Source: a virus
Taxonomy: Duplodnaviria > Heunggongvirae > Uroviricota > Caudoviricetes
Reading direction: 5' to 3' (one strand)
Virus record (IMG/VR): IMGVR_UViG_3300047159_000049
Length of the DNA stretch: 64,000 nt
Shown here: positions 1,425-63,646 of the stretch, piece after piece
How the letters are laid out: the number at the start of each line of letters is the position of its first letter
Numbering within the stretch: the first letter of the stretch is position 1
Position numbers and translations under genes: made by a program
Notes under the pieces: model-generated
Databases searched by the model: none
Told to the model about the DNA's origin: nothing
The model's input: only the letters and a program-made list of their open reading frames with translations

Positions 1425-1470
1425 GAGGATGCCGAAAGGCATTCCCTCAGGGGATTATTTTTTATTTTCC
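1421..1470 (+). terminator. terminator-like hairpin plus T-run
   Basis: CTGAGAGGATGCC...GGCATTCCCTCAG then TTATTTTTTATTTT. Confidence 0.5.
1451..1470 (-). repeat. AT-motif copy (GGGATTATTTTTTATTTTCC)
   Basis: Intergenic, after a terminator hairpin, about 25 nt before the 1496 start. Confidence 0.7.
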
Positions 1471-1495
1471 TTCAAGGAAAGAAACACAACACATT

Positions 1496-3841
1496 ATGTA
1501 TGACAAACCATTCGACCGAGAGAAAGCCATAGATAATCTTCGCGAGCTTGCGACTGTAAGCCTTTCAACAAGAGAAGGCGTCGTATACGGCCAAGCGCTG
1601 TTCTGCATATTAGCCGGATTGCCTCTCAGCGTTCTGGTTGATCCGGAAACTCAGAAAATCGTCGAAGGTATCACTAACCTAAGAACATACGATTCGTATA
1701 ACTACACCAATCCTACTAAGATAAACTTCATCAGCGGCATGCTTGGATTGTACAGAAACTGCTATGTCGACGTCGATTCGAAGCTCAGCGTAGACATCGC
1801 AAAAGTGATCCTTTCAAGCATCGTCAGGGAAAACAAATATTCCTGGTTCGGCGATAACGCGTCAAACGTATTTCAGATGCTTAACAAGATCTTCAAATTC
1901 GAGACTTCTAGGATAGGCGACGTCGTCACGCTTCTTCTCAAAGCGCCAGATTCGTTTTTCGTTTCAAGCGGAAATCTAATGGACTCCGATGCGTCTTTCG
2001 CAGGGATCCCGTTTTCGCCGTGCAACCTATTCCAATACTATCTTGATTGCGAGATCATGTACGACACCGATATCAGCCGAATCATCAAATTCGTGAATAA
2101 GTCCGAAGGAATCCTCAAGGCTTCGTTCAAAGAAGACCCGGATGGAATAGGGCTGTTCCAATGCCCGGCTGGGATGACCTATGACGTCGTCTCCGTCAAC
2201 GCCGCCAATAAGATCCGCATCAACCGCGAGCTGATTTTAGTCAATCCCAACATCGACGACGCCAGCAAAATGGCATTCGTGTCGTCAGATCCGAAGGCAT
2301 GCGTAAAGAAAGCCATACCGGTATATGCGGAGATATTCGATCTCAAATTCACAGATTTTTCTCAGGTTTCGGCGCTTGCGGACATCATCGCCAAGTGCGA
2401 GCATCCTACTCTGACGAAAGGCAGACTTGCGTCAGAAGTTCTCAACGTCCGAGAGCAGATTCTCGTTCCTAAGCTTGAAGCCGCCATCAACACGGTTTAC
2501 AAATACTCGAAGGCTTCCGGAGTCAGCACCGAAGAGAACATCTCCAAGGCAACCCGGGCTAAACACTACAAAGGCATGCCTGGCGCCAATGACTTCTTCT
2601 CATCGGTAAAAGGCTATCGCAGCCTTGAATCCGCCATGTCAAAATTCAACGCCAGAGCCAGCTATGTCGTATGCCCGAGCAATAATAACAACAAACTAAT
2701 CTCAGCCATCGCGATAGACTACAGCGCATGCGAAGGAGATCCGACATATATCATGAAGGCTTCTTTGGCCCATGAATACATCATCGGAACGATATCGTGC
2801 ACAGATCCTGAGGAGATGATCCAATATCCTGGTCTATGGAATATGTTCGCCACAGACAAAGGAGCCCTTCCTTACGACCCTGGAAACAGCGACAGATCAT
2901 CGGCATCTTTCATGTCAGTCGTGAAGCGGTTCGCCAAATTCAGTCCAAACGCCAACAAGAAAGCGTCGTGCCGAATGATATTCGACGCGATGATACGAGG
3001 ATTCGGCGTCTTTGCGTCTAATTGGCAGCTTAACGGAAAGCATCTCAATGCCGCAAATGTCATAATGAACGATTTCTATGACGTGTTCATCAATAAATGC
3101 GTAACTCCAAACGACGATGATCCTAGAGCAAGCGTCTATGACATCTCCAATCTCGACATGACCGACGCCGACAGAGAATCTCTGGCGGCCATAGTCGGGT
3201 CATGCTACGACAGCGGGATAATCTCCGATCAGTATTACGACATCATCTATTCGAAGATCGAAGAATCGTCCATAAACGGTCAACGCTTCGATTATTATCA
3301 CATTCAGCCTATCACTAGGCTTGTCGCCATGTGCGGAAAGGCCGCTTCTAACAAATTGCTGGAAATGGCCGCCGCCCAGAAGACCTATCTTCCAATGGTG
3401 CTATTCGTATCCGGGGCTCTTCCTGGTTGCGTCTATAGTGGACGCGCTGCATTCGAGCAAGCAGCCAGGACTATCAGCGATCAACTGAAGAGCGATATCT
3501 CAAATCCGCATTACGACACGGCATTCAGCCAGATCGATGGCGATCCTGATCTCCCATTAATGACCGCGCTCGGAATCATCGTCGCCAACATCAACAACGA
3601 CTCCGCCGTTACTTATCGCCAAACAGCGGCTATCGCTAATTCCGTTAAGCGAGCTTCTGCTAACGAATATTATCGCGGAGAGGTCTCCTTTACTCCGGCT
3701 TTGCGAAATCAGTTCTCGCAGACATATTTCGAAGGGCTTTTCAAATACTACTTCTCAGATCAATCATCTCCGGAAGCGGTTGAGTTCAAGCATAATCTCG
3801 AGTATATGGACGCGTCAATATCCCTCAATCTGTCAATCTAG
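1496..3841 (+). CDS. hypothetical large protein (781 aa)
   Basis: Long ORF with an ATG start after a terminator-like hairpin. No catalytic motifs recognised. Confidence 0.6.
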   Translation: MYDKPFDREKAIDNLRELATVSLSTREGVVYGQALFCILAGLPLSVLVDPETQKIVEGITNLRTYDSYNYTNPTKINFISGMLGLYRNCYVDVDSKLSVDIAKVILSSIVRENKYSWFGDNASNVFQMLNKIFKFETSRIGDVVTLLLKAPDSFFVSSGNLMDSDASFAGIPFSPCNLFQYYLDCEIMYDTDISRIIKFVNKSEGILKASFKEDPDGIGLFQCPAGMTYDVVSVNAANKIRINRELILVNPNIDDASKMAFVSSDPKACVKKAIPVYAEIFDLKFTDFSQVSALADIIAKCEHPTLTKGRLASEVLNVREQILVPKLEAAINTVYKYSKASGVSTEENISKATRAKHYKGMPGANDFFSSVKGYRSLESAMSKFNARASYVVCPSNNNNKLISAIAIDYSACEGDPTYIMKASLAHEYIIGTISCTDPEEMIQYPGLWNMFATDKGALPYDPGNSDRSSASFMSVVKRFAKFSPNANKKASCRMIFDAMIRGFGVFASNWQLNGKHLNAANVIMNDFYDVFINKCVTPNDDDPRASVYDISNLDMTDADRESLAAIVGSCYDSGIISDQYYDIIYSKIEESSINGQRFDYYHIQPITRLVAMCGKAASNKLLEMAAAQKTYLPMVLFVSGALPGCVYSGRAAFEQAARTISDQLKSDISNPHYDTAFSQIDGDPDLPLMTALGIIVANINNDSAVTYRQTAAIANSVKRASANEYYRGEVSFTPALRNQFSQTYFEGLFKYYFSDQSSPEAVEFKHNLEYMDASISLNLSI

Positions 3842-3891
3842 CCAAAAACGCCCCTCCGAACAACGTATTATTGATCGGAGGGACGTGTCCA

Positions 3892-4353
3892 ATGGCTGCA
3901 CCAACACCAGAAACTAAGCAATTCGAAGATTACTTCAAAGACGATTTAGACGCCATAAACTCGACCATTTCCGATATCGAGCTCTACAAGAAGGGCATCG
4001 ATGGACGAATCGGTTTGATGCAAGGCGCCGGATCAAGAGGAGGCGAGCATTATCTCACCGACCATTACAAGAACGCCATCGCATTGGAAACGATGAAGGC
4101 GACGTTGCTTGAGGATCGGTTCGAGATCCATAAGACCGTCATGGACTACGCAGTCAAAGCCACCGTCACAGGCGGAGGAGACAACGAGTCCGCGCTCATT
4201 TCCATCGCAAGGAACCTTTACAAGGCTCAGGTCGCTGATCTTAATTCGGCAAACGCCGTCATGAACTCCATAGGGCCAAACGGGATCGTCCCTCAAGCCG
4301 CCAATGGAGAAACAGCCGACGCCGCGATTGACAAGCGCCTCGATAAGAAGTAA
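3892..4353 (+). CDS. hypothetical protein
   Basis: ATG at 3892 is preceded by a GGAGGGA ribosome-binding site. The ORF ends before a terminator-like hairpin. Confidence 0.5.
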   Translation: MAAPTPETKQFEDYFKDDLDAINSTISDIELYKKGIDGRIGLMQGAGSRGGEHYLTDHYKNAIALETMKATLLEDRFEIHKTVMDYAVKATVTGGGDNESALISIARNLYKAQVADLNSANAVMNSIGPNGIVPQAANGETADAAIDKRLDKK

Positions 4354-4406
4354 TATCAAGCCTGAGCCAGAGATGGCCCAGGCTAATTTTTAGAAAGGAC
4401 AATAAT

Positions 4407-5468: not shown

Positions 5469-5476
5469 GACGCCGC

Positions 5477-5493
5477 TTTTTTTTATTTTTTCC
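5477..5493 (-). repeat. AT-motif copy (T-run variant)
   Basis: Intergenic, immediately 5' of a sigma70-like promoter. Confidence 0.5.
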
Positions 5494-5531: not shown

Positions 5532-5556
5532 TTGTATCCGTAAAGAAGGAGATCGT

Positions 5557-8014: not shown

Positions 8015-8036
8015 GGGATTATTTTTTTTATTTCCC
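8015..8036 (-). repeat. AT-motif copy GGGATTATTTTTTTTATTTCCC
   Basis: Intergenic, hairpin upstream, 17 nt before the ATG at 8053. Confidence 0.7.
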
Positions 8037-10940: not shown

Positions 10941-10960
10941 GGAAATAAAATATTTTATCC
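10941..10960 (+). repeat. AT-motif copy, palindromic variant GGAAATAAAATATTTTATCC
   Basis: Intergenic, 20 nt before the 10982 start. Confidence 0.65.
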
Positions 10961-11227: not shown

Positions 11228-13297
11228 ATGGCAAAGAAATACTTAGTCTTAGTCGAGTCTCCAGGCAAGGTTCACAAGATATCTCAGATCCTTGGGCCGA
11301 ATTACAACGTTCAGGCGTCGATCGGGCATATCGCCAGGATCGCCGACAGCGGAAAATACAGCCTCGGCATCAACGTGGACAAAGACTTCGAGATGGATCT
11401 TGAAGTCGATCCTAAGAAAGCCGAAGTCGTCAAGAGCCTGCGCTCAGCCGTCAAGAACGCCGACATCGTCTATCTGGCATCCGACGCCGACCGCGAAGGG
11501 GAGATGATCTCCTATTCGCTTAAGCGCTTCCTTCAGATCCCCGATGAGAAAGCGAAGAGAATAACTTTCACCGAGATCACCGAATCGGCCATCAAGGAAT
11601 CAGTCAAGAAGCCAGGCGTCATAGACGACAACATGGTCGAAAGCGCCATGACGCGCATGAGCCTTGACAAGATCATAGGATACCGCCTGTCCGGAGTCGT
11701 TCAGCGCAAGCTATGCTGCAAATCGGCAGGCCGCGTCCAATCGGCAGGACTGAAGATCCTGTGCGACAGGGAGAATGAGATCAAGGCATTCGTCCCCGTT
11801 CAATATTTCGAGCTGTATCTCCCGTTTGATAAGAATGGCGTCATATACGAAGCCAAATACCGCGGAACTGACGCCAAGCGCATGTCGACGTTCAAGAGCC
11901 GAGACGACGCGATCGCCGTCATGAACGAATGCAAGCCCGGCAACTACAACGTCGGAAAGATCGAAAGCTCTGACAGAGTCGTCAAATCAAAGCTTCCGTT
12001 CACGACAAGCACGTTTCAGCAGGATTGCTCGTCGAAGCTAAACTACACTCCGAAGAAAGCCATGGAGATCGCCCAGAAGCTGTATGAGCAAGGGTTCATT
12101 TCGTACATGAGAACCGACGCCGTCAGATTCTCCGACGAATTCATCGAAGCCGCCAAGAACAAGATCGTCGGCGAGTTCGGGAGCCAATACTACACCGGGC
12201 TCCGCATCCCGAAGGATCAGAACAAGGATGCCCAGAACGCGCATGAATCGATTCGCCCGACGCACATCGAAGACACCCCCGAAGCGCTGGCCCTCAAATT
12301 GGACTCGGAGCAATTCAACGTCTATAAGCTCATCTATTCCAGATCTCTGGCGGCTTTGATGGCCGATGAGATCATGACGGATCTCGAAACCTCGATCTAT
12401 AACGGGGCCAACAGATTCTCGTTCATCGCGCACTCTGTCAAGTTCGACGGATTCGCCAAAGCCTACAATTACACCGATCCGGACGAGGAAGACGCCAAGT
12501 TCCCGGTCATGTCGATGAATGAGCATGTCAAAGACGGTCCGCTTCGGCTAGACGAGAAATCGACTAACCCGCCAGCCAGATACACGGAAGCTGGGCTCGT
12601 CAAAGCCCTCGAGGATTCCGGCGTTGGCCGCCCATCGACATACGCGACGATCATCGGCGTTCTCAAAGACGCCGCCAGAGGATACACCGAGATGGTAGGC
12701 AAAACGATGAAGCCGACAGACAAGGGTCTGCTTCTGTCAAAATTCCTCGACGATCATTTCTCAGACATCATCTCCCTCGAATACACGTCAGAGATGGAAT
12801 CCAAATTGGACGAGATAGCCGGAGGCAAAGCCACCCGCGTCCCGACGCTGAAGGATTTCTACGGCAAGTTCGATCCTGAGATCAAAGCCGTCAAGGACAT
12901 CGAGGTCGAAGGCCGCCCCGTCGTCGAGAAAGTCGAAGGCCGCAAATGCCCGCTGTGCGGACACGATCTCGTCTATCGCAACGGCAGATACGGCAGATTC
13001 ATAGCCTGCTCAAACTACATGAGAGGCCACTGCAAGTACACCGAGCGCCTGGATGCCAATGGCAACCCCATCCCGTCAAGCGCCAGCGACAAGAAGCCAG
13101 CCCCGGAAAAGACCGGGTTCAAATGCCCTAAATGCGGAGGCGACGTCATCAAGCGCCATTCCGCCAAGACCGGCCAGGACTTCTACGGATGCTCAAACTA
13201 CCCGAAATGCCATCAGGTATGGTCTCAGGCATCCTTCGATGAGACGTTCAAAGGCGCCAAGAAGAAAATAAATAAAATTTCCGTCGATAAAGACTAA
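11228..13297 (+). CDS. type IA DNA topoisomerase (TopA/Topo III-like) with C-terminal zinc ribbons
   Basis: Toprim LVLVESPGKVHKI. Active-site region GFISYMRTDAV. Two Cys4 ribbons (CPLCG...CSNY, CPKCG...CSNYPKC). Confidence 0.85.
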   Translation: MAKKYLVLVESPGKVHKISQILGPNYNVQASIGHIARIADSGKYSLGINVDKDFEMDLEVDPKKAEVVKSLRSAVKNADIVYLASDADREGEMISYSLKRFLQIPDEKAKRITFTEITESAIKESVKKPGVIDDNMVESAMTRMSLDKIIGYRLSGVVQRKLCCKSAGRVQSAGLKILCDRENEIKAFVPVQYFELYLPFDKNGVIYEAKYRGTDAKRMSTFKSRDDAIAVMNECKPGNYNVGKIESSDRVVKSKLPFTTSTFQQDCSSKLNYTPKKAMEIAQKLYEQGFISYMRTDAVRFSDEFIEAAKNKIVGEFGSQYYTGLRIPKDQNKDAQNAHESIRPTHIEDTPEALALKLDSEQFNVYKLIYSRSLAALMADEIMTDLETSIYNGANRFSFIAHSVKFDGFAKAYNYTDPDEEDAKFPVMSMNEHVKDGPLRLDEKSTNPPARYTEAGLVKALEDSGVGRPSTYATIIGVLKDAARGYTEMVGKTMKPTDKGLLLSKFLDDHFSDIISLEYTSEMESKLDEIAGGKATRVPTLKDFYGKFDPEIKAVKDIEVEGRPVVEKVEGRKCPLCGHDLVYRNGRYGRFIACSNYMRGHCKYTERLDANGNPIPSSASDKKPAPEKTGFKCPKCGGDVIKRHSAKTGQDFYGCSNYPKCHQVWSQASFDETFKGAKKKINKISVDKD
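13261..13282 (+). repeat. AT-motif copy
   Basis: Encodes the last residues (KKINKIS) of the topoisomerase. Confidence 0.55.
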
Positions 13298-15593: not shown

Positions 15594-15640
15594 CCAGAAG
15601 CTTAGGTCAAACGCCTATGCTTCTGGGGTTTATTTTTTTA
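15594..15640 (+). terminator. intrinsic terminator
   Basis: 8-bp stem CCAGAAGC/GCTTCTGG plus T-run. Confidence 0.55.
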
Positions 15641-15647
15641 TTTCCCC
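15625..15647 (-). repeat. AT-motif copy GGTTTATTTTTTTATTTCCCC
   Basis: Follows a terminator hairpin. Confidence 0.65.
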
Positions 15648-16557: not shown

Positions 16558-16590
16558 ACCCGATCCGATTCGGGTTCTTTTTTTTATTTC
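16558..16590 (+). terminator. intrinsic terminator
   Basis: GAACCCGA-TCCGAT-TCGGGTTC plus T9. Confidence 0.6.
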
Positions 16591-16593
16591 CCG
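16579..16593 (-). repeat. AT-motif copy (T-run plus ATTTCCC)
   Basis: Follows a terminator hairpin, 30 nt before the ATG at 16623. Confidence 0.55.
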
Positions 16594-47029: not shown

Positions 47030-47061
47030 TAGACGCCATAAAGATCCGCAAATCACGGATC

Positions 47062-47664: not shown

Positions 47665-49164
47665 ATGCGAAAGACATGGCCAGACAAAGACGAGATGATC
47701 CGATGGATAACTGAAAACTCAGCCACCAGGACAGACGTGATGGCGCATTACGGATTCTCAAAGCAATCCATGCGCACCATCAGCGCCAAATACGGGCTTA
47801 AGGAATATCTCAAACCCATCTCCGAAGACGAGAGGATCGCCAGAAGCAAGGAAGCTGTCAAAGCCAAGTACGGCGTCGACAACGTCTTTAGGCTGAAATC
47901 GATCCAGGACAAATCCGCCAAAACCAACGTCGAGAGATACGGCTTCAGCTCCCCCAACAAGAACAAGGAAGTCGTCGCTAAGCGCAAGAAGACCAATCTA
48001 GTCAGATATGGCTATGCCATGCCGATGATGAACAAAGTCATAAAGGCCAAAGCCAACAAGACGAACCTGGAGAAGTACGGATCGGCATGCGTCCTGGCGT
48101 CTCCGGAAATAAAAAATAAAATCTCCAAGACGAGCGACGCCAAATACGGAACGCCTGTCATTCAGTCGAGAGATCTCACAGACATCGGCAAATCAGCCAC
48201 GCAATCAAAGGAAGCGATGTCCGCTTTCATAGAATCGCAATCAGACCGCACCAGCAAGCATCTCATGGACGAGCTCGGATACGAGTCAAGAACCGGATTC
48301 TTCATAATGATCCACAAGTACGGCTTGTTCGATCTGCTTGACTGCGACAAGGAAACGTCTTTCGCCGAGAAGGAAATAGCCGATCTGATAGAGTCGCTCG
48401 GATTCAAAGTCGATCGCAACAGACGCGATCTTCTTGGCGATGGGCGCGAGATAGACATCTACGTCCCAGACAGGCATCTTGGGATCGAATACAACGGGAC
48501 GTATTGGCATTCCGATCTCAAGAAGGATGACAAAGAGTATCATCAGCGCAAAGTCCTCGATGCCGAGAAGAACGGAATCCATCTGATTCACATCTACGAA
48601 TTCCAATGGGAGAATCCCGTCCTTAAGCCGATAATCATCTCAGTCGTAAAACTGTTCTTAGGCCTTAACTTCAATCGCGTATATGCGAGAGACTGCGTCA
48701 TCAAGACGATCCCGGAAAGCGTGAGCAGGCCATTCTGCGAGAGCAACCACATGCAAGGATATGTCTATGCCAAAATCACTTATGGGCTGTTCTCCAAATC
48801 AGGAGAGCTTCTTCAGCTGATGAGCTTCGGAAAGCCAAGATACAGCCATCTGGCCCAATGGGAGATCATCAGAGGATGCCCAGGATCGAATAACCTCGTC
48901 GTCGGAGGCGTGTCCAGGCTGTTCTCGCATTTCGTCAAAGACAACAGCCCGGAGTCCGTGCTGTCATACTGCGACCTCAATATGTTCGACGGCAAAGGAT
49001 ACAAAGCCATCGGAATGAATCTCGTCGGCGTGACAAAGCCAAACAAATGGGTGATCCTCCCAGACGGAAGGGTCATCGACAGAGACCCGTCAAAGTACGA
49101 AGAGTACAAAGGCTATCCGTCCATATACGGAGCTGGAAGCGCCGTGTACCTGTGGAAAAAATAA
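47665..49164 (+). CDS. homing-endonuclease-like protein: NUMOD-like K..TN..KYG repeats plus DUF559/Vsr-like PD-(D/E)xK domain
   Basis: Repeats ...KTNVERYG / KTNLVRYG / KTNLEKYG / SDAKYG. IDIYVPDRHLGIEYNGTYWH...GIHLIHIYE. Confidence 0.45.
   Translation: MRKTWPDKDEMIRWITENSATRTDVMAHYGFSKQSMRTISAKYGLKEYLKPISEDERIARSKEAVKAKYGVDNVFRLKSIQDKSAKTNVERYGFSSPNKNKEVVAKRKKTNLVRYGYAMPMMNKVIKAKANKTNLEKYGSACVLASPEIKNKISKTSDAKYGTPVIQSRDLTDIGKSATQSKEAMSAFIESQSDRTSKHLMDELGYESRTGFFIMIHKYGLFDLLDCDKETSFAEKEIADLIESLGFKVDRNRRDLLGDGREIDIYVPDRHLGIEYNGTYWHSDLKKDDKEYHQRKVLDAEKNGIHLIHIYEFQWENPVLKPIIISVVKLFLGLNFNRVYARDCVIKTIPESVSRPFCESNHMQGYVYAKITYGLFSKSGELLQLMSFGKPRYSHLAQWEIIRGCPGSNNLVVGGVSRLFSHFVKDNSPESVLSYCDLNMFDGKGYKAIGMNLVGVTKPNKWVILPDGRVIDRDPSKYEEYKGYPSIYGAGSAVYLWKK
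48105..48126 (+). repeat. AT-motif copy
   Basis: Intragenic, encodes EIKNKIS. Confidence 0.55.
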
Positions 49165-49172
49165 AATAAAGG
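49154..49172 (+). repeat. AT-motif copy
   Basis: Spans a stop codon and precedes the bidirectional terminator. Confidence 0.55.
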
Positions 49173-49201: not shown

Positions 49202-52200
49202 TCAGTAGTCCCAGATGGCTTTTATCATCCGCCCTAGCTCAACGAGTACTTTGTTCGAGTAGAGGTATGAGAAGAAGTCAGATGTCATGCGTCCTAATAT
49301 TCCTGTAGGAGTGCATACTGCATTGCATGGAAGCTCGCTATGATATTCCGACGTAGGAGATTCTCCTGCGGCAAACACCTTAGACACGACTCCCTTGAGA
49401 GCGCTCGTGTAAGTGATCTTGTCTCCAGGGCCGATCGGGTCGAGTATCTCAACGTAGTATTCGATGAGAACGCCTTGATACTGGCTTCCGTTGACCTTGG
49501 ACTTTCCTGAGCTGTCGGTTCCCATCTGGTTGGTCGTGTCTATATGCACGCTTCCGCCATGAGGGACGTTGTATTTGGTGAGGAACTCAGATCTGTCAAG
49601 CTGGATGCCTTTGTATTCCGATATGAGCTTTCTGAGGGTCGGGCTGAGCTCAGCCAAAGGCATATTGTAATACACCTTCACAGAAACGACGCTTCCGGAG
49701 TATCTAGAAAGGATCTTATCGCGTGATATCTCGTTCACGGCATTGGCGCCCAAGACATCTTTCATGTTGTTCATGTATTCGGCAGTCGATGGATCGAGAT
49801 AGCTCTTGGAGTATTCCAGAAGGGTATCCTCAGATTCAACCTTGTCTCCGGCATGAACCGTGCTGTAGATCGTCGCATTGGGGCCAAGCGCCACCGATGT
49901 CATCATCGTGAAGTAAGACGCGCATTCGTTTGACAGAGTCTCATCGACCATCGTCGAGTCCTCAAACGCGCCATCCGATGCGGCAAGCGCAACCTTGGCA
50001 AGCGTTCCAGGCATATAATCGATGTCCTTTCCCTTTCCGCTGAAATAAGACGGGTTGTAGGCAATGACGTCGCCTTTATTGAATCTCTCGCCTTGGCTGT
50101 ATTTGATGAGGAAGTGCTCTTTGATGAAGAATCCGCTGTTCGAGTTCTTAACGAGAACGTCGCCGAGATCGATCGCGTCGTTCGTCCCATCGTCATATGC
50201 CAGAATGGCGATGTGCTTATTGGTGTCGATTGTCTTGATTACTCCGTTCTTCTTGGCTTTGAAGCAGAAGTCATCGGATATCATGAACGCCATCGTCTTA
50301 TTTATTCCTGATCCGACAAGCTGCTTATGGGCTTTGACGACGGGCATCGTGTGCTTAGTCTGCGAAATCTGCATCGCTGAGCGAGGCGCATCCGACTGAG
50401 CCGACACGAACGATGCCAGCATCTCGGCAGGGCTTAGGATGTTCGTAGCCGACAGACTGCTCTTATCGACGTCTGGGATGTATCCGCGGATCGTCGAGAT
50501 CTTAGGATCATATGAAATCGATCGGCTCATTCCGGCCGTTCCGCCGAACTGAGTGTCGTTTCCTGACAGGAATCCGATCATGCTAGGATCATAAGCGCGC
50601 ATCTTCATGGTGTACGCCTTGTCCAGGTTGACGCCGTTGAATCCCTTTGCCGTGCAGTTTGAAAGGCTTTCAAGCTCAAGCACCGGGTTCAATACGCTTG
50701 CCGGATTGACGTTTACCTGGTTGGTCAGGGCCTTGATGAGGGCGTTCTTAGGAAGATCAAGCCCTCCTCTGTGCCCATTAAGGCGGCCGTTCTGATAGTT
50801 CTTGTATGCGTCGGCAAGGACTTTGTACAGAACAGCGTATATCTCTTCGTTTCCTCTGATGCGGTAGTTTCTTGCGTCGTTTAGCGATCGGCAGGTATTG
50901 GTCGTCAGAAGCGTGTTGGCGAATAAGAGCATCCCGACGATATCCGTAGGCTGCTTAAGATCTTTCTGAACGTCGTAGGTAATAGGATCGACCATCGCCG
51001 ACAGATGAAGCTTGATGGTGTTTCTGGCATACGAGTTGTATCCAAGGACATTGACGAAGAAATTGACATACGGATCCTCAGTGTCAAAGTCTCTGAAGTC
51101 GTATTGGTCGGTCTCCATCAAGCGAAGGACGTTAAGAAGCATCGTGTTCTTGAGATTGTCCAGGAAATAAAAATATTTATCCCTGAAACGGATCTCGACG
51201 TAATTGGAAAGAAGCGTTCTGTCGCGCTTGTCTGAAAGCGTGTATTTGACTCCGTATCTTCTCAAAACGCTGGTGATTCCTTCCATGAATCCGCACAGAG
51301 AGAAGATCGGATAGAACTGCTCGATCATCTTGGCTCTCGAATAGACGAAGCTCTTTCCGATAGACGGGATATCCGCATTCTGCAGCCCCAATGCAGCCAG
51401 AACGAATGCCTGGATGCAATCGGCAGCTTTGTTGTCAGACGCGATAGATCCTCCGTCTTTAGTCGGAATGGCCAGATAGACAGCTCCGTCAGGCTTGATG
51501 TGAATGACGTTGGATGAGTTCTTCTCGATCGCTATAGGGGTGTCCATCGAATCGTCTTTGAAGAATCCGTCTGGGAAGTCCATCGCGGATATCTTGCTCA
51601 TGATGCGCTGACGATCGAGGTCGATATCGTATCTCGGGGCGTCTATCGAAGAGATGCTAGACGCTAGCTCTTCATATTCGAAATCGCTGACGTATCTGTC
51701 GTTATGGACAGAATTGTCTCCCCAAAGGACAGTCCATCCCTTGGCAGAAGGCTCGGCGGTTTTGATCATCTTCAGAAGACGGACGTTTCTGCGCGAAACC
51801 TTCTCATTGGTGCGTTCAACCGTGATCTTGCTGTATGATGTCGAGATCTCGACGACGTTTGGCTTGGTCTTGACGATAGGAAGACGGAGAAGCTGCTTCT
51901 CGATGAACATCTTGTTTCCGTTGATGAAGATGAATCTGCCATCGATCACCTCAGGGATGTCGAGCGTGAATCCAAGCGACGATCCGTCGTCAGCTTTGTA
52001 ATGAGCCGTAAGGGTCATCTTCTTATTGAAGTCATCGCTCGAGTCAACGATGTTGATTCTGTCCATCGCGATCGGAAGGAACTGCGAGTTTGAGAAATGG
52101 GTGAGGATGCTCATCAGGTCTTTCTTGGCCTGCTTGGTGTTATAGTCTTCGTCAAGCGCCATCAATGAGCTATGCCTAACGCGGCTGTCGAAGTTGGCGA

Positions 52201-53539
52201 CATCGACGTCTATTTCCTTGTCATCGAGGAGAGACTCGGCATCGACGGCTATAGGAGAAGCCTTGCTTTCATCATCGTCTTTAGCGGCATATTTCGCAGC
52301 CGCCGCGGATTTCAGAGCCGACAGAACCGATGGCTTTACAGCGGTTCCGGCAGTTTGCTTCGATTTGTCTTCCGGCTCTTCTTTATCGGATGCAGACGAT
52401 TTTTCGAAATCATCTATGACTTTGGCCTCTTTCTCAAGGCCCTTGGCAAGCTGATTGAGCTTTTGGCTGTTGCTCTTCTTGGTCTCGACGTACTTAATGG
52501 CAGCCGCTTTCACATCGGGATCCGCTTCGATCGTTGTCTTTAGATCGTCATAGGACTTTCCGGCATTCTCTTTCTTGGAAAGATATCCGTCGATCTTCTT
52601 ATCGACGACAGCCGCGATGTCTCCTTCGTCTTTGGTGGCGGCGTCAAATGTCTCAGGAGCTCTGATCTTAAGTGACTTAGAGACTGACGTGAATACGAAA
52701 TTTTTTATTTTTTCCTTCGCTTCGTCGCTCTTGTCGGAGTCATCAGCCTCATCAGATCCATCGGAATCGACGTCATCTCCTTCTAGGGCCTCTCCCTTAT
52801 TCGCGTTATTGAGACGCGATATCTTAAGGAGATAGTCGTTGATCGATTTCTCAAGAGTCGGATCTGACGGATCCATGACCACGACAGCCTCGTTGTTAGG
52901 ATTATAGAAGATGATCCTGTCGAACATCTTATAGACGGACATATCGGCAAGGCCTTTTCTGAGCGTAAGAAGGAATAATGACATAGGGGTCACGTCTTCA
53001 ACGCTTGTGTCAAACAATCCCATTTTGGCGACTGATCCGAGTTTGTCAGAATAGTCGCAAATAGGGAAAATCAAATAATTCTTCTGATATCCTACTGAGG
53101 AAACAGCTTCAGGAAGGAACTCTTCCAGGAAGTCCTTCATCGCGATATACCTTGCAAATCCCTGCTTGTTTTCACGAAGAGCAAGGGTTTCTTTGAAATC
53201 AGGAATCATATCGTACACCAGATTTTTCTCGGCATACGATGTGACAAATGGCTTTCCAATTTTTAATCTACCGGAGCTTTTGTCTCTGAGCGAGGCATAA
53301 ACGGCAGCTTGATCCTCGCGAACGATCTTTCTGTTTAAAGGGCGGACCACACGAGGCGTGTACATGCAGTAAAGCTGCTGAGGCCTAAACAGCATATGAG
53401 TCATCACCGAAGCTATGTCGTCATAAGAATCCGTGGCCAGAACCACAAGATTTCCGTACATCTTTCTCTCTGTGTCGAAATTGATCGTGCGCCCTAGAAG
53501 GATACGATCCAACTTCATCTTACTCGGTGATACGAACAT
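49202..53539 (-). CDS. giant divergent RNA polymerase beta-subunit-like protein (1445 aa)
   Basis: RAYDPSMIGFLSGNDTQFGGTAGMSRSIS resembles the beta R(D)VHP..YGR.CP.ETPEG.N.GL.NSLS region. GDKITYTSALKGVVSKVF resembles GDK...RHGNKGVVS. Confidence 0.45.
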   Translation of the reverse strand: MFVSPSKMKLDRILLGRTINFDTERKMYGNLVVLATDSYDDIASVMTHMLFRPQQLYCMYTPRVVRPLNRKIVREDQAAVYASLRDKSSGRLKIGKPFVTSYAEKNLVYDMIPDFKETLALRENKQGFARYIAMKDFLEEFLPEAVSSVGYQKNYLIFPICDYSDKLGSVAKMGLFDTSVEDVTPMSLFLLTLRKGLADMSVYKMFDRIIFYNPNNEAVVVMDPSDPTLEKSINDYLLKISRLNNANKGEALEGDDVDSDGSDEADDSDKSDEAKEKIKNFVFTSVSKSLKIRAPETFDAATKDEGDIAAVVDKKIDGYLSKKENAGKSYDDLKTTIEADPDVKAAAIKYVETKKSNSQKLNQLAKGLEKEAKVIDDFEKSSASDKEEPEDKSKQTAGTAVKPSVLSALKSAAAAKYAAKDDDESKASPIAVDAESLLDDKEIDVDVANFDSRVRHSSLMALDEDYNTKQAKKDLMSILTHFSNSQFLPIAMDRINIVDSSDDFNKKMTLTAHYKADDGSSLGFTLDIPEVIDGRFIFINGNKMFIEKQLLRLPIVKTKPNVVEISTSYSKITVERTNEKVSRRNVRLLKMIKTAEPSAKGWTVLWGDNSVHNDRYVSDFEYEELASSISSIDAPRYDIDLDRQRIMSKISAMDFPDGFFKDDSMDTPIAIEKNSSNVIHIKPDGAVYLAIPTKDGGSIASDNKAADCIQAFVLAALGLQNADIPSIGKSFVYSRAKMIEQFYPIFSLCGFMEGITSVLRRYGVKYTLSDKRDRTLLSNYVEIRFRDKYFYFLDNLKNTMLLNVLRLMETDQYDFRDFDTEDPYVNFFVNVLGYNSYARNTIKLHLSAMVDPITYDVQKDLKQPTDIVGMLLFANTLLTTNTCRSLNDARNYRIRGNEEIYAVLYKVLADAYKNYQNGRLNGHRGGLDLPKNALIKALTNQVNVNPASVLNPVLELESLSNCTAKGFNGVNLDKAYTMKMRAYDPSMIGFLSGNDTQFGGTAGMSRSISYDPKISTIRGYIPDVDKSSLSATNILSPAEMLASFVSAQSDAPRSAMQISQTKHTMPVVKAHKQLVGSGINKTMAFMISDDFCFKAKKNGVIKTIDTNKHIAILAYDDGTNDAIDLGDVLVKNSNSGFFIKEHFLIKYSQGERFNKGDVIAYNPSYFSGKGKDIDYMPGTLAKVALAASDGAFEDSTMVDETLSNECASYFTMMTSVALGPNATIYSTVHAGDKVESEDTLLEYSKSYLDPSTAEYMNNMKDVLGANAVNEISRDKILSRYSGSVVSVKVYYNMPLAELSPTLRKLISEYKGIQLDRSEFLTKYNVPHGGSVHIDTTNQMGTDSSGKSKVNGSQYQGVLIEYYVEILDPIGPGDKITYTSALKGVVSKVFAAGESPTSEYHSELPCNAVCTPTGILGRMTSDFFSYLYSNKVLVELGRMIKAIWDY
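51163..51183 (+). repeat. AT-motif copy GGAAATAAAAATATTTATCCC
   Basis: Intragenic in the - strand RNAP-like gene. Confidence 0.6.
52697..52715 (-). repeat. AT-motif copy
   Basis: Intragenic in the - strand RNAP-like gene, encodes KEKIKNF. Confidence 0.55.
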
Positions 53540-53598: not shown

Positions 53599-53622
53599 GG
53601 GGAAAATAAAAAAAAGATCCCC
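53599..53622 (+). repeat. AT-motif copy GGGGAAAATAAAAAAAAGATCCCC
   Basis: About 60 nt upstream (T-run orientation in - sense) of the RNAP-like gene start. Confidence 0.65.
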
Positions 53623-55975: not shown

Positions 55976-56004
55976 TAGTCTGGCTTTATTTTTTTTGTTT
56001 CCCG
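55966..56004 (+). terminator. intrinsic terminator closing the ORF-poor 54.8-55.97 kb region
   Basis: AGCCAGAC-AGTTAG-TCTGGCT plus T-run. Confidence 0.55.
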
Positions 56005-57438: not shown

Positions 57439-57459
57439 GGGAAATAAAAAAAATAACCC
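57439..57459 (+). repeat. AT-motif copy GGGAAATAAAAAAAATAACCC
   Basis: Overlaps the - strand attenuator/terminator. Confidence 0.6.
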
Positions 57460-58713: not shown

Positions 58714-61245
58714 TCACTTCGAATGTGAATATTTTTGTTTTTCCGGAATCCTTGAGAACAGATTATCCATAGTGAAGTACACGACAGGCATCGCCAGAAC
58801 GCTGATCAAAATCATCAGCCAATCCCCGCTGGATAATGCGCTAAGCGTTCCTCCGAGATCGAATATCTTTGAGAACGCGTCATAGTACGCGCCATCTATT
58901 TTTATAACCCATAAATGCATTACGCCATCGGATGCGATTTTGAAAAGGCTGGTAGAGCATCCGCCAAACGCGCTGAGAGGAAGGAACATCGAGTATATCA
59001 CGGCCCCAGCCATGTTGCCGATGAACACTCCGGACCTATATCCGTTCATAGGAACGCTTATGCGGAACAGAACCATGAACGACGCTATCGAATAAAGCAT
59101 GCAGATCAGAGTTTTGTCTTTCATCGTCGGAGCGACTATGCTCCATGTCTGCCCGCCCGAAAGCCATATCTTTCCAACAAGAACCGACCCGGCAAGCAGC
59201 AACGCGGCCGGTATCGCTCGCACCATGATATTGCGTTTGAATGATCCTGAAAGCCTTTCCTGGCAAGGCTCGACCGACAGGAAGAACGAGGCGATCCCGA
59301 TGACGAATGTCTCCATCAAGGCAAGATTTTCCATCTCGAGAGGGAAATAATAAAATAATCCGCACAGCGTCATTATCCCAAGAAGCATCATCGAGAAAGT
59401 CTTCATCAGGAACAAAGTTGAAGTCCTGGTTATGTTGTTGACGACTCTGCGCCCTTCGCCTATAGCAGCCGGAAGATCATCGAAATTAGAATCGATGAGA
59501 ACGATGTTGGAAACCGCTTTGGCGGCATCCGCCCCTCCGGCCATGGCGACCGAGCAATCCGCTGTCTTCAGAGATATGACGTCATTGACCCCGTCTCCGG
59601 CATACGCCACTTTATGGCCTTGCTTCTGAAGAGCCTTGATGATCTTAGCCTTCTGCTCCGGGCTAACGCGCCCAAACACATTGAAATCCGCCGCCATCTG
59701 AGGGATATCCTCATCTCGGATCCCCTCCATAGAAACCGCCTTGTCCCAATCTGGGACTCCGGCTTCTTTGGCGATCTGCGACACGGTTGATGGATTGTCG
59801 CCAGAGATGATCTTGACGCTGACGGAATTGTCTTTGAACCATTTCATCGTGCTGATGACCGCTGGCCTGACGCCATCCCTAAGCACTATGAGAGCCAGCG
59901 GATCGATGTCAGCCGATCTGTCCTCTCCTTGCGGCTGCAGGCTTCCATGGCGCCTTGCGAACAAGACGACCCGAAGCCCTCTGGAAGCCAGCTTCGCGTA
60001 TTCTGAAAGTATGATAGAATCCCCGGTGATATATTCCGGCGCTCCCAAAACGTAAATGAATCCGTCAGGCATCCCGGCAGAAGACGTCTTCCTGTCGCTG
60101 GAGAACTCAAGCACTTCCTGAGCCGTCATCGACCCTACGGATCCGAACTGAGCTATCAGAGCGGCTGACGTCGCGTTGCTCGTCTTGAATGAGCCGATGA
60201 AAGATGACAGAAGATCGACGAGCTGATTGTCTTTGACCTTTCGGCTGAGGCTGATTATGGAATCAACCTTCATATGCCCGTCCGTAAGGGTTCCCGTCTT
60301 GTCGAACGCGACGGTGTCTACCCTGGCCAGCATCTCGATGGAATACATGTCCTGAACGAGCGCTTTCTTCGACGCTAATTTGATTATTCCGACGGCAAGC
60401 GCTATGGACGTAAGGAGAATCATCCCTGAAGGAATCATGCCGACCATCATGGTCCCTGTCGGGATTATGACGTCGGACTCAAACGAAGTCGTGTACGCCG
60501 CCGGCATCCCGTTGGTAAGCCAAAGCTTAAGCCCCAGGGCGAATCCGAGCGGGACGATGATGCACGCCAGAACCTTGAGCAGCCACATGATCGTGGTCAT
60601 CAGCTCAGACTTGGCTCTCTTGAATTCCTTGGCTTTGTTTTGGATGCCGGACGCGTAAGTCGATTGCCCCACGGCCGTAGCCACGATGGAGCATGACCCC
60701 GAAATGATGAACGACCCGGCAAGAACCTTAGCCCCGGATTCCTTCTTTATGGCGTCGGCCTCTCCGGTGAGAAGCGACTCATTGGCTTCGGCGCTTCCGT
60801 CGATGACGTCTCCGTCGACAGGGATCTGATCGCCAGATCTCAGAATGACGACGTCTCCCAAAACGATGTCGTCGGAATTTATTTTTATTTCCTTCCCGTC
60901 TCTGCGAACAGATGCCTTAGATGAGCACACTATCGACAGCTTCTCTACGGCTTTCTTTGACCTGATTTCCTGGATGATTCCGATTGCCGTATTGAGGACA
61001 AGATTGATGCAGAATCCGTATTTCGACCAGTCATCCACCCCGAACACGAGGAAGCATATGGCTATGCCGGCAAGCAACGCGTTGAAGAATGTGAACACGC
61101 TGTCCCTGATGATATCCCAATAGGACTTCGAGCATTTCTTGTTGGTGACGTTTGCCAATCCATCTGACTTAAGCTGAGCGGCTTTCTCAGACGTAAGCCC
61201 CTGCGAACGGCTGTCGACGATCTTTGCATTTTGGTGTGTTTTCAT
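58714..61245 (-). CDS. P-type cation-transporting ATPase (P2-like)
   Basis: DKTGTLT, TGEADAI, GDGVNDV motifs. N-terminal GLTSEKAAQLKSDG. Multiple TM segments. Confidence 0.85.
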   Translation of the reverse strand: MKTHQNAKIVDSRSQGLTSEKAAQLKSDGLANVTNKKCSKSYWDIIRDSVFTFFNALLAGIAICFLVFGVDDWSKYGFCINLVLNTAIGIIQEIRSKKAVEKLSIVCSSKASVRRDGKEIKINSDDIVLGDVVILRSGDQIPVDGDVIDGSAEANESLLTGEADAIKKESGAKVLAGSFIISGSCSIVATAVGQSTYASGIQNKAKEFKRAKSELMTTIMWLLKVLACIIVPLGFALGLKLWLTNGMPAAYTTSFESDVIIPTGTMMVGMIPSGMILLTSIALAVGIIKLASKKALVQDMYSIEMLARVDTVAFDKTGTLTDGHMKVDSIISLSRKVKDNQLVDLLSSFIGSFKTSNATSAALIAQFGSVGSMTAQEVLEFSSDRKTSSAGMPDGFIYVLGAPEYITGDSIILSEYAKLASRGLRVVLFARRHGSLQPQGEDRSADIDPLALIVLRDGVRPAVISTMKWFKDNSVSVKIISGDNPSTVSQIAKEAGVPDWDKAVSMEGIRDEDIPQMAADFNVFGRVSPEQKAKIIKALQKQGHKVAYAGDGVNDVISLKTADCSVAMAGGADAAKAVSNIVLIDSNFDDLPAAIGEGRRVVNNITRTSTLFLMKTFSMMLLGIMTLCGLFYYFPLEMENLALMETFVIGIASFFLSVEPCQERLSGSFKRNIMVRAIPAALLLAGSVLVGKIWLSGGQTWSIVAPTMKDKTLICMLYSIASFMVLFRISVPMNGYRSGVFIGNMAGAVIYSMFLPLSAFGGCSTSLFKIASDGVMHLWVIKIDGAYYDAFSKIFDLGGTLSALSSGDWLMILISVLAMPVVYFTMDNLFSRIPEKQKYSHSK
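59342..59361 (+). repeat. AT-motif copy GGGAAATAATAAAATAATCC
   Basis: Intragenic in the P-type ATPase (encodes GLFYYFPL). Confidence 0.6.
60875..60892 (-). repeat. AT-motif copy GGAATTTATTTTTATTTCC
   Basis: Intragenic in the P-type ATPase (encodes KEIKINS). Confidence 0.6.
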
Positions 61246-61882: not shown

Positions 61883-61894
61883 CGACCACCCGAT

Positions 61895-61909
61895 CTTTTT
61901 TTTATTTCC
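61895..61909 (-). repeat. AT-motif variant (T-run plus ATTTCC)
   Basis: Between convergent genes. Confidence 0.4.
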
Positions 61910-62246: not shown

Positions 62247-62259
62247 TTAGATTATATTA

Positions 62260-62943
62260 TTATTTTCCTGTTCTTGCAATCTTCGAATTGCTCGGAAGCG
62301 GCTTAAGAGAAGCCGACTTCAGTATTTTCTGAAGCTTATCCCTTTCAATAACCTTAATTCCATATTGCTCGGCAAGCTCTCTGGAAGGCTTCATCAAATA
62401 CCCATTGGTTATGATCATCAGATCTGAATGCCTATGGAATCTCTTTGATATGGCGAATTGCTTTATCAGATCAGGGCTGATTCTCCCTATAGCCAATTCG
62501 CAGCGCACCCTTGTTCTCCTGATGCCGCGCTTCTTGACTATTATGGAAGCGCCTTCCATTGAGTCAGGGCTCCCAAGCTTAACTCTGTATCCGCACTTGA
62601 GGAACATCATCGTGCACACTATTGAGAACTGCTCGGGGCTGACATCGTCTATCTCGGTAGCCTTCGAACTGGCCACTCCGTATACCTCGGACATGAATCT
62701 GTTCTTTATCTTGTCCTCGGCGCGCCTGTTTATGATCATCATGACGATCATGCCTGACGCTATAAGGAACAGCACGACGGCCCCGGCTATCAGCAGCGGC
62801 TGCTCAGAATGCGAAGCGATCGCTATGAAAAACAAGAACGTCGCAACGATGAATATTACGAATGCGGCAACGCCGATTATGACGTTCGCCTGCCGCTTCA
62901 ATTCGTTGGCTGATTTCTCACGCAATATCTTTAGATCTGACAT
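62260..62943 (-). CDS. membrane-anchored Mrr-like restriction endonuclease-domain protein (start uncertain)
   Basis: Two TM helices. The C-terminal GSPDSMEGASIIVKKRG...VRCELAIG resembles Mrr_cat. Confidence 0.4.
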   Translation of the reverse strand: MSDLKILREKSANELKRQANVIIGVAAFVIFIVATFLFFIAIASHSEQPLLIAGAVVLFLIASGMIVMMIINRRAEDKIKNRFMSEVYGVASSKATEIDDVSPEQFSIVCTMMFLKCGYRVKLGSPDSMEGASIIVKKRGIRRTRVRCELAIGRISPDLIKQFAISKRFHRHSDLMIITNGYLMKPSRELAEQYGIKVIERDKLQKILKSASLKPLPSNSKIARTGK

Positions 62944-62983
62944 AATTGATTGTTGAGGATCCCGTATTTTAGCCAGGATCAAG

Positions 62984-63011
62984 GATATATGATTCTTATG
63001 AAACAAAGGAG
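62984..63011 (+). promoter_or_regulatory. GATATATGAT-family element copy 6
   Basis: GATATATGATTCTTATGAAACAAAGGAGG, directly upstream of the 63022 start. Confidence 0.45.
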
Positions 63012-63021
63012 GCATATGCAT

Positions 63022-63600
63022 ATGCTTGTTTCAAAAAATGTCGCAGCGATCAGAGAATTGGTCGCACATCACCAAGCCGATAAAATCGGCTACATCGTGG
63101 ACAGATTCCACAATGAGTTGTCTTTGATCAGAGACAACGAAAATTTTGATCTGTACGTCGTTTATGAGCCGCACAACTTTGTCCCTAATCAGGACAGAGC
63201 TTTCGTTGTCATCTCGACAATGAAAGCAGCCAAAGAATTCATGGCCGCCATGATTGTCAGAGATGTCATCTCCTACAAAGATTTCTGCGATGCGAAATTT
63301 TCGTACATCGCAAAAACAAAAAAATCTTCGCCGGATGATTCGGCGAAGGTTTTAGCAAACGCGACGAACAGCGCTTACGAAAAGCTTATCGCGGCGATTT
63401 CGGCTCCGTCTAAGGCCGCGATGGAATCGGCGACGATCATCGTCTCTGGGGTTTCCCCTGAGGAGCCGTCAGCCATTCCGCAGCCTGAGCCGAAGCCTAA
63501 GCAGCAAACCGCTTCTCATCGCGACATCGGGTACCAGCCAACGGCTGCCGATATCGCAGCCAAGTTCGCGGTTGGCCGCAACGCTGCCTTAAAGAAGTAG
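63022..63600 (+). CDS. hypothetical protein
   Basis: ATG after an AAGGAGG RBS. Confidence 0.45.
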   Translation: MLVSKNVAAIRELVAHHQADKIGYIVDRFHNELSLIRDNENFDLYVVYEPHNFVPNQDRAFVVISTMKAAKEFMAAMIVRDVISYKDFCDAKFSYIAKTKKSSPDDSAKVLANATNSAYEKLIAAISAPSKAAMESATIIVSGVSPEEPSAIPQPEPKPKQQTASHRDIGYQPTAADIAAKFAVGRNAALKK

Positions 63601-63608
63601 CAAAAGAA

Positions 63609-63646
63609 AGGCCTGACAACAAGTCAGGTCTTTTTTTTTATTTTTT
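63609..63646 (+). terminator. intrinsic terminator
   Basis: AGGCCTGAC-AACAAG-TCAGGTCT plus T9ATTTTTT. Confidence 0.6.

Follow-up and report, generated by a model that had tools for sequence, protein, structure and literature searches.

An asymmetric A/T-only word with G/C ends recurs at gene boundaries and within genes of a GC-rich jumbo phage lineage

We analyzed a 64,000-nt stretch of DNA (the window) from a virus of the Caudoviricetes, IMG/VR record IMGVR_UViG_3300047159_000049, through which a short A/T-only word with G/C ends is scattered both between and within genes. The window is ~50% GC, and its genes, the models of which are our own calls, lie on the plus strand up to 49164 and then mostly on the minus strand. 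The products include a family B DNA polymerase (PolB), TopA, ClpB- and ClpP-like proteins, RecJ, RNase H, a P-type ATPase and an RNA polymerase (RNAP) beta-like protein of 1445 residues. The best phage matches of the RNAP beta-like subunit are to AR9, PBS1 and Staphylococcus jumbo phages (31-37% identity), and we therefore place the phage among the jumbo phages that carry two multisubunit RNA polymerases. A megablast comparison of 20 kb of the window with a phage collection gave no match and no near-identical phage record, and one viral-contig search and one metagenome-contig search with RNAP beta as query returned no relatives. The closest RNAP beta proteins, 68-70% identical, are encoded by contigs L001-L005 (58-59% GC), and a further 59% GC contig, L019, encodes a PolB that is 69% identical.

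The word is GG-(A/T)15-16-CC, a 19-20 bp island, all A/T between its ends, whose A-rich strand reads 5´-GGAAA...T-CC. The original prediction, made from the letters of the window, had counted about 33 copies by eye; our curated scan (GG, a core of 14-17 nt with at most one non-A/T base, then S) yielded 35 good copies from 1452 to 63649. Enrichment over shuffled sequence, which had been proposed as a check, was clear: the earlier consensus with up to three mismatches gave 12 matches compared to 0.00 across 100 shuffles. The lengths of A/T-only runs in the window are bimodal, with 6-11 nt runs depleted and a maximum of 17 nt, and 25 runs are 15-16 nt long where 0.4 are expected (12 of 15 nt and 13 of 16 nt, with Markov-1 expectations of 0.24 and 0.16, respectively). 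Among 58 copies from three loci (the window, L001 and L019), which represent two phage lineages, the 5´ flank is GG in 50, with 57 having G at -1; at the 3´ end, CC follows in 37 copies, GC in nine and CG in five. The core measures 15 nt in 28 copies and 16 nt in 20, and in 42 it begins with AAA and ends with T. Beyond the two flanking bases, no conserved position was detected on either side in alignments of 51 and 58 copies, nor did we see terminal repeats, target duplications or similarity outside the word in the aligned copies. The 35 copies in the window are given here with the strand that is A-rich.

1452..1470 (-): copy GGAAAATAAAAAATAATCC; intergenic, T-rich along the genes, 26 nt before the ATG at 1496 and directly after hairpin 1418-1453 (-25.8 kcal/mol, z -4.3); kept in L019 at 4490
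5475..5493 (-): after an HD-domain gene with a weak hairpin; TTGACA-17-TAGAAT and PolB come next; kept in L019 at 9150
8016..8035 (-): after hairpin 7988-8015, 18 nt before the ATG at 8053; kept in L019 at 12536 and also in L021
9504..9523 (+): intergenic, A-rich in sense, abutting the ATG at 9524, without hairpin; kept in L019 at 14022
10941..10960 (+): intergenic, 22 nt before the HTH_17 gene (10982), without hairpin; in L019 at 15266 with orientation flipped
13263..13282 (+): final TopA codons (KKINKIS), 15 nt before the stop
15627..15645 (-): after hairpin 15591-15629 (-24.9 kcal/mol, z -5.0); early-like promoter next, at 15675
16573..16591 (-): one G in the core; after hairpin 16556-16577 (z -2.5); late-like promoter next, at 16612
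17388..17405 (+): deep in the gene ending at 18299, without hairpin
20054..20072 (+): codons 2-7 of gene 20052-20366 (MENKNNS)
22885..22904 (+): internal TAA is the stop of gene 21327-22895; hairpin on the CC side (-21.0 kcal/mol)
29449..29468 (+): internal TAA is the stop of ClpP (28767-29456); hairpin on the CC side
31626..31644 (+): deep in an SPFH/Band 7 gene (GNKKYFG)
33230..33250 (+): one G in the core; overlaps the stop of 32992-33234, upstream of AGGAGG-ATG
33913..33930 (-): in open reading frame (ORF) 33769-34071, coding strand T-rich (GKYFFS)
34197..34216 (+): in the NrdD ATP-cone (GKIKNNS)
38087..38106 (+): NrdD residues ~838-845 (ADKNKNIG), flanks CG and CG; just inside the N-terminal edge of a Pfam Intein_splicing match (residues 830-1162)
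39557..39575 (+): NrdD-glutaredoxin junction (LENKNIS); kept in L002 at 19767
41017..41037 (-): between divergent genes, without a strong hairpin; TTGAAA-17-TATCGT on the plus strand, AACAATTGATTAT on the minus strand
42582..42601 (-): one G in the core; upstream of RecJ, with its GATCC end within hairpin 42563-42588 (-16.4 kcal/mol, z -3.4)
43852..43869 (+): in RecJ at the reading-frame switch; kept in L001 at 21423
45992..46010 (+): deep in gene 45102-46214 (VENKIIS); L001 orthologue has ordinary sequence here
47057..47076 (-): after hairpin 47040-47064 (z -3.7); late-like promoter next, at 47094
48105..48124 (+): deep in a DUF7487 endonuclease-like gene (PEIKNKIS)
49154..49172 (+): supplies the stop of 47656-49164; with hairpin 49171-49190 (z -4.2), predicted terminator T-tract of the convergent RNAP beta gene
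51163..51182 (+): in RNAP beta, coding strand T-rich (RDKYFYFL)
52696..52715 (-): in RNAP beta, coding strand A-rich (KEKIKNFV); L001 has RSDEVKDGIV there
53601..53620 (+): upstream of RNAP beta; structured GC-rich sequence precedes on the minus strand (fold z -1.4); late-like promoter at 53579-53567
55983..56002 (-): one C in the core; 3´ end of gene 55975-56400, adjoined by a hairpin and T-run
57440..57458 (+): intergenic, adjoined by a short hairpin; late-like promoter at 57427-57415
59343..59361 (+): in the P-type ATPase, coding strand T-rich (GLFYYFP, membrane segment)
60874..60892 (-): in the P-type ATPase (DGKEIKINSDD); L001 core identical
61891..61909 (-): convergent junction of genes 61343-61882 (+) and 61902-62246 (-)
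62249..62268 (-): overlaps the 3´ end of gene 62260-63021 (-), without hairpin
63629..63649 (-): after hairpin 63611-63632 (plus strand, -20.5 kcal/mol, z -6.4), predicted terminator of ORF 62950-63600

About 14 of the 35 copies (about 40%) directly abut a GC hairpin, which, where present, lies only on the CC side, such that the other strand reads hairpin and then T6-9-A-T3-6-CC. For seven of the eight junctions folded, the hairpin was significant (z -2.5 to -6.4), the exception being 53601. Hairpin copies are found at gene 3´ ends and co-oriented with them at 1452, 15627, 16573, 42582, 47057, 49154 (for RNAP beta) and 63629 in the window, as are the copies at 380, 1767, 14272, 22667 and 23537 in L001, and the copies at 49154 in the window and at 380, 1767 and 14272 in L001 are at convergent gene ends. 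These locations fit terminators and not promoters, and the hairpin copies have the geometry predicted for the T-tract of intrinsic terminators, some of them bidirectional at convergent genes. They differ from ordinary terminators in that the tract is stereotyped, with a fixed 15-16 nt length and G/C clamps, and in that the same word also occurs hairpin-free within genes and before gene starts. The original prediction had described a fixed order of hairpin, T-rich motif and gene start at nine sites. This order was found at 1452, 8016, 15627, 16573, 42582, 47057, 53601 and 57440, but not at 41017, which lacks a strong hairpin and lies between divergent genes. Similarly, many intergenic copies are at the terminator-promoter junctions that had been suggested, but the word itself would be the terminator T-tract, with the promoters as separate motifs further downstream. 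Ordinary terminators with short T-runs are present in the same genome, and the hairpins adjoining the copies are unrelated to one another in sequence; a simple terminator scanner was too noisy for use.

Other copies have a different relationship to genes. Nine terminate the reading frame of a gene with their internal TAA, one directly follows an ATG and a few are just before starts. The 13 of 35 copies that are deep (>30 nt inside genes) have no adjacent hairpin, with a mean flank energy of -7.4 kcal/mol compared to -6.2 for background. Since deep positions make up 84% of the window (P=3e-10), the word is concentrated where sequence constraint is weakest. Reading through the copies ourselves, we also rejected an RNA hairpin formed by the quasi-palindrome, for which pairings were inconsistent across copies, as well as an ARN-repeat (Hfq) pattern, for which spacings were inconsistent. 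Searches for tRNA genes and Rfam families gave nothing that explains the word. We also noted two short forms, GG-ATTTTATTTT-CC at 30791-30804, with a 10-nt core, following the hairpin after gene 29497-30759, and a degenerate copy with an 11-nt core at 26457; inside or beside the longest gap between copies, these may be decaying or nascent.

For the copies within genes, we compared the encoded residues to homologous proteins. The ATPase copy at 60874 encodes RRDGKEIKINSDDIVLGDVVIL and aligns without gaps with IRDGSKQSIHARELVPGDVVIL of the solved Listeria Ca-ATPase, as does the T-rich copy at 59343 with its counterpart in the same protein. Likewise, the copies in RNAP beta, the ATPase and gene 45102-46214 each aligned without gaps opposite ordinary sequence in the L001 orthologues (55-72% identical). 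The peptide RIIFYNP is encoded by CGG ATT ATT TTT TAT AAT CCC in L001, where it is a copy of the word, and by AGG ATC ATC TTC TAT AAT CCT in the window, where it is not; elsewhere in L001, TTT constitutes 4% of Phe codons. Runs of at least four K/N/I/Y/F/L residues were encoded exclusively by A/T-only codons in nine of 47 cases in L001 (0.04 expected) and in six of 171 cases in the window (0.71 expected). Outside the word, sense A-runs of at least five are at about half of the level in synonymous shuffles while T-runs are at expectation, consistent with a general avoidance of slippery A-runs. The original prediction had correctly read the peptides GKIKNNS (34197) and ENKNIS (39557), and had noted the use of more than one reading frame; the intragenic copies in fact use all three phases instead of two, with the third supplying the TAA stop at gene ends. 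The gapless alignments, the synonymous rewriting and the use of all phases together argue for selection on the nucleotide sequence and not on the peptide, as had been proposed. These comparisons show that, through a choice of synonymous or conservative codons, the word is written into ORFs, including those of NrdD, RecJ, RNAP beta and the P-type ATPase.

The same alignments bear on the earlier suggestion of a mobile repeat tolerated in frame, akin to Rickettsia palindromic elements (RPEs), and equally on a repeat resembling miniature inverted-repeat transposable elements. The copies are highly stereotyped, and most relatives of this phage are AT-rich (27-38% GC), as might be expected for a miniature mobile or templated repeat or for a neutral relic of an AT-rich ancestor. 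RPEs are, like the word, short repeats in or next to genes, but they insert residues and the word adds none: the copies are not insertions relative to the solved Ca-ATPase or the orthologues, and their flanks have no shared sequence, terminal repeats or target duplications. Relics would be expected to decay, not to reappear at new, evenly spaced sites. We therefore rejected an in-frame mobile repeat, and consider this whole class of explanation largely refuted and very improbable, though templated short-patch replacement that keeps length could in principle still be at work.

As the copies are often near predicted promoters, we compared them with the promoters of AR9, which are AAATATATATTAT-N6-G for early genes and AACA-N6-T-A/G for late genes (PMC5312081). 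Three classes of promoter-like motif were found in the window.

Late-like motif AACAAnnGATT-ATG (about ten in the window): 16612, 47094, 20394, 3859 (+); 40998, 53579, 57427, 61259, 62954 (-)
Early-like motif GATATATGAT-N~9-G: 13347, 15675, 21251, 54027, 61309, 62985 (all +)
Sigma70-like sites: 5504-5532, 41038-41066, 42602-42630, 44463-44474

The late-like motif matches the AR9 late consensus and is directly at gene starts, with the predicted transcript start at the AUG or no more than 3 nt from it; such promoters would give leaderless or nearly leaderless mRNAs. The early-like motif, (G)ATATAT[GC]AT followed by G ~9 nt on, can be aligned to the early consensus of AR9 and probably serves the virion RNA polymerase as its promoter; in L001 it is present four times, always on the same strand. 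Both motifs are kept in L001 and in a 54% GC relative, L010. Sigma70-like sites include TTGACA-17-TAGAAT at 5504-5532 upstream of PolB, of which TTGACA is also in L019, and CC-TTGAA[AC]-17-TATC[GC]T directly after two T-rich copies (41038-41066 and 42602-42630). An extended -10 element, TGATATAAT (44463-44474), is kept in L001 near 784. Three stretches of 0.5-1.2 kb (13298-13894, 53621-54101 and 54763-55974) have no convincing ORF, tRNA, Rfam match or word copy; the first two contain an early-like promoter and therefore may encode non-coding RNAs. A 25-nt repeat, GGAACGATAGTTTCATCGGAAAGGA, at 24881-24905, 25456-25480 and 26274-26298 forms a small hairpin, ends in the Shine-Dalgarno-like GGAAAGGA and is just upstream of three small ORFs; it could be a common translational or RNA-level operator.

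These motifs allowed us to evaluate the word as a promoter, either the AT-rich early promoter of a virion RNAP as in AR9 and phiKZ or an UP-like upstream element. In jumbo phages with two multisubunit RNA polymerases, early promoters are likewise conserved AT-rich motifs (PMC5312081, PMC7598289), T-rich copies of the word are 14-65 nt upstream of promoters or gene starts, and two copies abut the sigma70-like CC-TTGAA[AC]-17-TATC[GC]T directly. However, the AR9 and phiKZ promoters have a start base 6-7 nt downstream, are upstream of early operons and occur ~1 per 6 kb, with 41 in the 251 kb of AR9 (PMC5312081), features that the word does not share. No conserved base was detected at the start-site distance in either direction (51 or 58 copies), the copies are not placed upstream of operons pointing inward but also at convergent gene ends and deep in genes in both orientations, and the density is 1 per 1.5-1.8 kb. 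Promoters downstream of the word are at no constant distance from it (14-24 nt), with the orientation reversed in one case, so the word does not belong to a composite promoter, and fixed spacing to the AACA motif was rejected since the spacing was inconsistent across copies. Moreover, the separate early-like motif already fits the AR9 early consensus. A promoter role is thus improbable, and of the phage-specific factor or RNAP site in the original prediction we favor the possible factor site.

The copies close to translation starts suggested another possibility, that the word acts in RNA as an unstructured 15-nt A/U island, serving as a site of ribonuclease entry or cleavage or as an S1- or Hfq-type translation enhancer. 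Copies at 9504, 10941, 20054, 22885, 29449 and 33230 are 1-45 nt before starts or right after an ATG, the position of the 9504 copy is kept in L019, and such an island would work in either orientation. Against this, only the first few U residues would be transcribed from the terminator copies, the GG/CC flanks and measured core length are atypical for such RNA sites, the deep copies have no downstream start codon and the even spacing on DNA would be unexplained. We give this explanation little weight.

The original prediction had also called for a search of relatives, and the same word is present in L001, more densely than in the window (17 copies in 24 kb), and in L019 (11 copies in 17 kb). 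There are 16 exact matches to GG-W14-17-CC in the window and 10 in L001 (expected ~0), and none in six more distant relative contigs scanned directly; in a seventh, L011, from the same 54% GC phage as L010, the longest A/T run is at most 13 nt. Since the word is in the window, L001 and L019 and absent from these distant relatives, it is lineage-specific. Five of the six word-free relative phages are AT-rich (27-38% GC) and one is 54% GC, and the lineage with the word seems to have branched from an AT-rich clade and become GC-rich. Searched as DNA, the conserved ATPase copy matched only unrelated eukaryotic-looking contigs with a single copy each, a viral scan for a semi-degenerate form of the word gave 77 single chance matches, none multi-copy in a GC-rich background, and a full-text literature search for the word or for evenly spaced AT-rich motifs in jumbo phages returned nothing relevant. 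Positions 982-21224 of the window were assembled in 11 contigs (L021-L031) with at least 99.96% identity from several samples, and the copies in this region are therefore not an assembly artefact. These contigs represent at least 10 metagenome samples, with one contig per sample, and the longest is 219 kb; three more samples coincide with samples of the 59% GC relative. As this relative is also present in several samples with the window phage, the two lineages are found together and could have a common host.

Comparison of the three loci revealed which copies persist. Four intergenic positions (1452, 5475, 8016 and 9504) are kept between the window and L019, and one intergenic region (10941) keeps its copy in the flipped orientation. 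Intragenic copies mostly relocate: RNAP beta has two per genome in the window and L001 at different sites, and the ATPase has one identical copy in common with others differing, while those within RecJ and at the junction between NrdD and glutaredoxin are common to the window and relatives. Counting either strand, the density is about one copy per 1.4-1.8 kb, and copies of both orientations taken together are more evenly spaced than random, the coefficient of variation (CV) being 0.65 for the window (P=0.004), 0.43 for L001 (P=1e-4) and 0.35 for L019. Taken separately, neither orientation is evenly spaced in L001 (CV 1.05 and 0.71). When boundary copies were kept in place, deep copies closed the gaps more effectively than randomly chosen coding positions (P=0.004 for L001 and P=0.09 for the window; loci combined by Fisher, P=0.004). 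No long-range periodic lattice was detected, as Rayleigh scans were not significant compared to gap-shuffled controls, and we found no strong strand bias over long stretches of the kind known for Chi or the FtsK orienting polar sequences. The A-rich strand is the plus strand in 20 window copies and the minus strand in 15, and the orientations are interleaved in L001 and L019.

Orientation is central to the main rival explanation, a strand-specific stop, in which T6-9-A-T3-6-CC terminates or pauses a phage RNA polymerase. In this scenario, the hairpin copies would end sense transcripts and the intragenic copies would stop antisense or readthrough transcription, sparing the sense mRNA, comparable to vaccinia T5NT and the oligo-T signals of Pol III and archaea. 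The ~40% of copies with true terminator geometry are as expected for such a stop, and inside genes the A-rich strand is the coding strand, and the T-rich strand thus antisense, in 24 of 28 copies. The copies at 22885 and 29449, between co-directional genes, have a hairpin abutting the CC side, which is right for antisense termination, and for the copy at 13263 a hairpin is ~25 nt beyond. The window copies that are T-rich on the minus strand are evenly spaced by themselves (CV 0.53, P=0.001), and internal and antisense promoters have been published for AR9 (PMC5312081). However, because A/T-rich 15-mers in coding sequence are A-rich in 70-80% of cases anyway, the 24:4 bias (P=0.07) is no stronger than coding-strand composition predicts and needs no strand-specific function. 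Four T-rich copies are on the sense strand of essential genes (RNAP beta in both genomes and the ATPase), the deep copies have no adjacent hairpin, sense T-runs elsewhere are not avoided, and in L001 the merged set alone is regular. Ordinary short-T-run terminators also coexist with the word, and a fixed length and GG/CC flanks are unexpected for a U-tract. We consider this explanation unlikely, though deserving of serious attention.

Having found the word to be neither a promoter class of the AR9 type nor an inserted mobile element, we tentatively favor, as plausible though short of probable, a lineage-specific signal under selection on DNA that is read by a putative minor-groove-sensing protein and doubles as the terminator T-tract. 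Where intergenic DNA is at hand, a copy adjoins a GC hairpin as its predicted T-tract or overlaps a stop codon, and where no intergenic slot is available, it is encoded in an ORF by codon choice; positions turn over within genes, with copy number and spacing retained. The fixed G/C ends at a set distance and the strictly A/T, A-tract-like spacer suggest a double-stranded site that a protein could read through base contacts at the ends and the narrow minor groove of the spacer. The even, orientation-blind spacing suggests a process needing one site per 1-2 kb, for which the factor might act as a roadblock, insulator or organizer, sharing its site with hairpin terminators at gene ends. It is possible, if doubtful, that this is a chromosome-wide spacing signal on duplex DNA, for loading, anchoring, a roadblock or unwinding in the service of replication priming, genome organization or packaging, or control of R-loops or torsion. 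The requirement could be invisible in AT-rich relatives, which have A/T runs by chance, and would be exposed by the shift to 50-59% GC, with sites then written into genes. A version without a reader can also be envisioned, in which an easily melted segment forming a weak hybrid in a GC-rich genome would suffice to limit R-loops or torsional stress irrespective of direction. The TopA and RNase H encoded by the phage would be consistent with such a function.

Several observations weigh against a signal read in this way. The reader protein is putative, and a separation of ~1.5 helical turns, as between the GGA and TCC ends, would not be usual for a symmetric dimer; the version without a reader leaves the GG/CC flanks and the upper limit of 17 nt unexplained. 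In the window, the subset that is A-rich on the plus strand is about as regular as the merged set, so that orientation independence is supported chiefly by the small samples of L001 and L019. Gene lengths could be the source of some of the regularity in spacing, the fixed-boundary control being significant only for the loci combined. Coverage is incomplete, with a 6.5-kb gap at 22904-29449 and non-coding stretches of 0.6-1.2 kb without any copy, and the 54% GC relative does without the word.

The behavior of the word, though not its descent, resembles that of several dispersed DNA sites. The uptake signal sequence (USS) of Haemophilus and the DNA uptake sequence (DUS) of Neisseria are over-represented at ~1 per kb, in both orientations, evenly spaced, and found in terminators and tolerant gene positions. 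The phage word is similarly over-represented in both orientations, spaced more evenly than random and able to affect codon and residue choice, but it belongs to a phage and not a competent bacterium, and is an A/T island where USS and DUS are mixed 9-12-mers. The stoperators of mycobacteriophage L5 and the C1 operators of P1 number in the tens and are asymmetric sites of ~13-20 bp, mostly at gene boundaries; stoperators are intergenic, have one orientation relative to transcription and serve lysogeny. The word also has tens of scattered, boundary-concentrated copies and could block transcription chromosome-wide, but its orientation is mixed, 13 of its 35 copies are located deep within genes and no sign of a repressor was seen in this AR9-type jumbo phage. 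The cyanobacterial highly iterated palindrome HIP1, an over-represented 8-bp GC-rich perfect palindrome linked to methylation and of debated function, is another short word kept in coding sequence, in all frames, by selection at the DNA level, whereas the phage word is an asymmetric 19-20 bp A/T island. The T4-type PeSL is likewise a short repeat in or beside genes, but as a conserved cassette that joins a stem-loop to a promoter where genes meet, it is unlike the arrangement found here, in which the hairpins are unrelated and the promoters are separate motifs.

Three loci with copies merit separate description. The RecJ gene (42654-44442) is split into two overlapping ORFs, and homology to the intact L001 RecJ (620 residues) switches frame within 43852-43869, such that, as the original prediction had observed, the frameshift coincides with a copy of the word. 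Translation gives ...GIDDGHTG in the upstream frame and KIKFSGRS... in the downstream one, compared to GIDDPRSEKIKLSGRS in L001; the exact products of the two ORFs were not found on record. The split could be explained by a single additional base in the G4 or A5 run, which may reflect an error in sequencing, a genuine mutation or programmed frameshifting. NrdD (34031-39830) combines an ATP-cone with a glutaredoxin domain at its C-terminus and contains two inteins, one of the LAGLIDADG and one of the HNH/NUMOD type; it was called as overlapping ORFs 34031-35647 and 35574-39830, which may reflect another frame problem or an unusual junction. The gene at 10982-11224, just after a word copy and directly upstream of TopA in an arrangement kept in L019, encodes 80 residues with an HTH_17/MerR-like domain. 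The product is a candidate DNA-binding protein and, as a reader of the word, a mere lead.

We describe here an evenly spaced A/T word in a GC-rich jumbo phage lineage that would combine a role as terminator T-tract with codon writing inside genes. If the islands are read on DNA, they would point to a giant-phage process that needs a site every 1-2 kb, a need that would override codon usage and alter residues in an RNA polymerase, an ion pump and a ribonucleotide reductase. The two phages, at 50% and 59% GC, constitute a natural experiment in which the sites stand out from the background. The word also marks homopolymer spots prone to frameshifts, as in RecJ, and together with the predicted terminators and the three promoter classes, it provides a first transcription map for an uncultured AR9-like clade.

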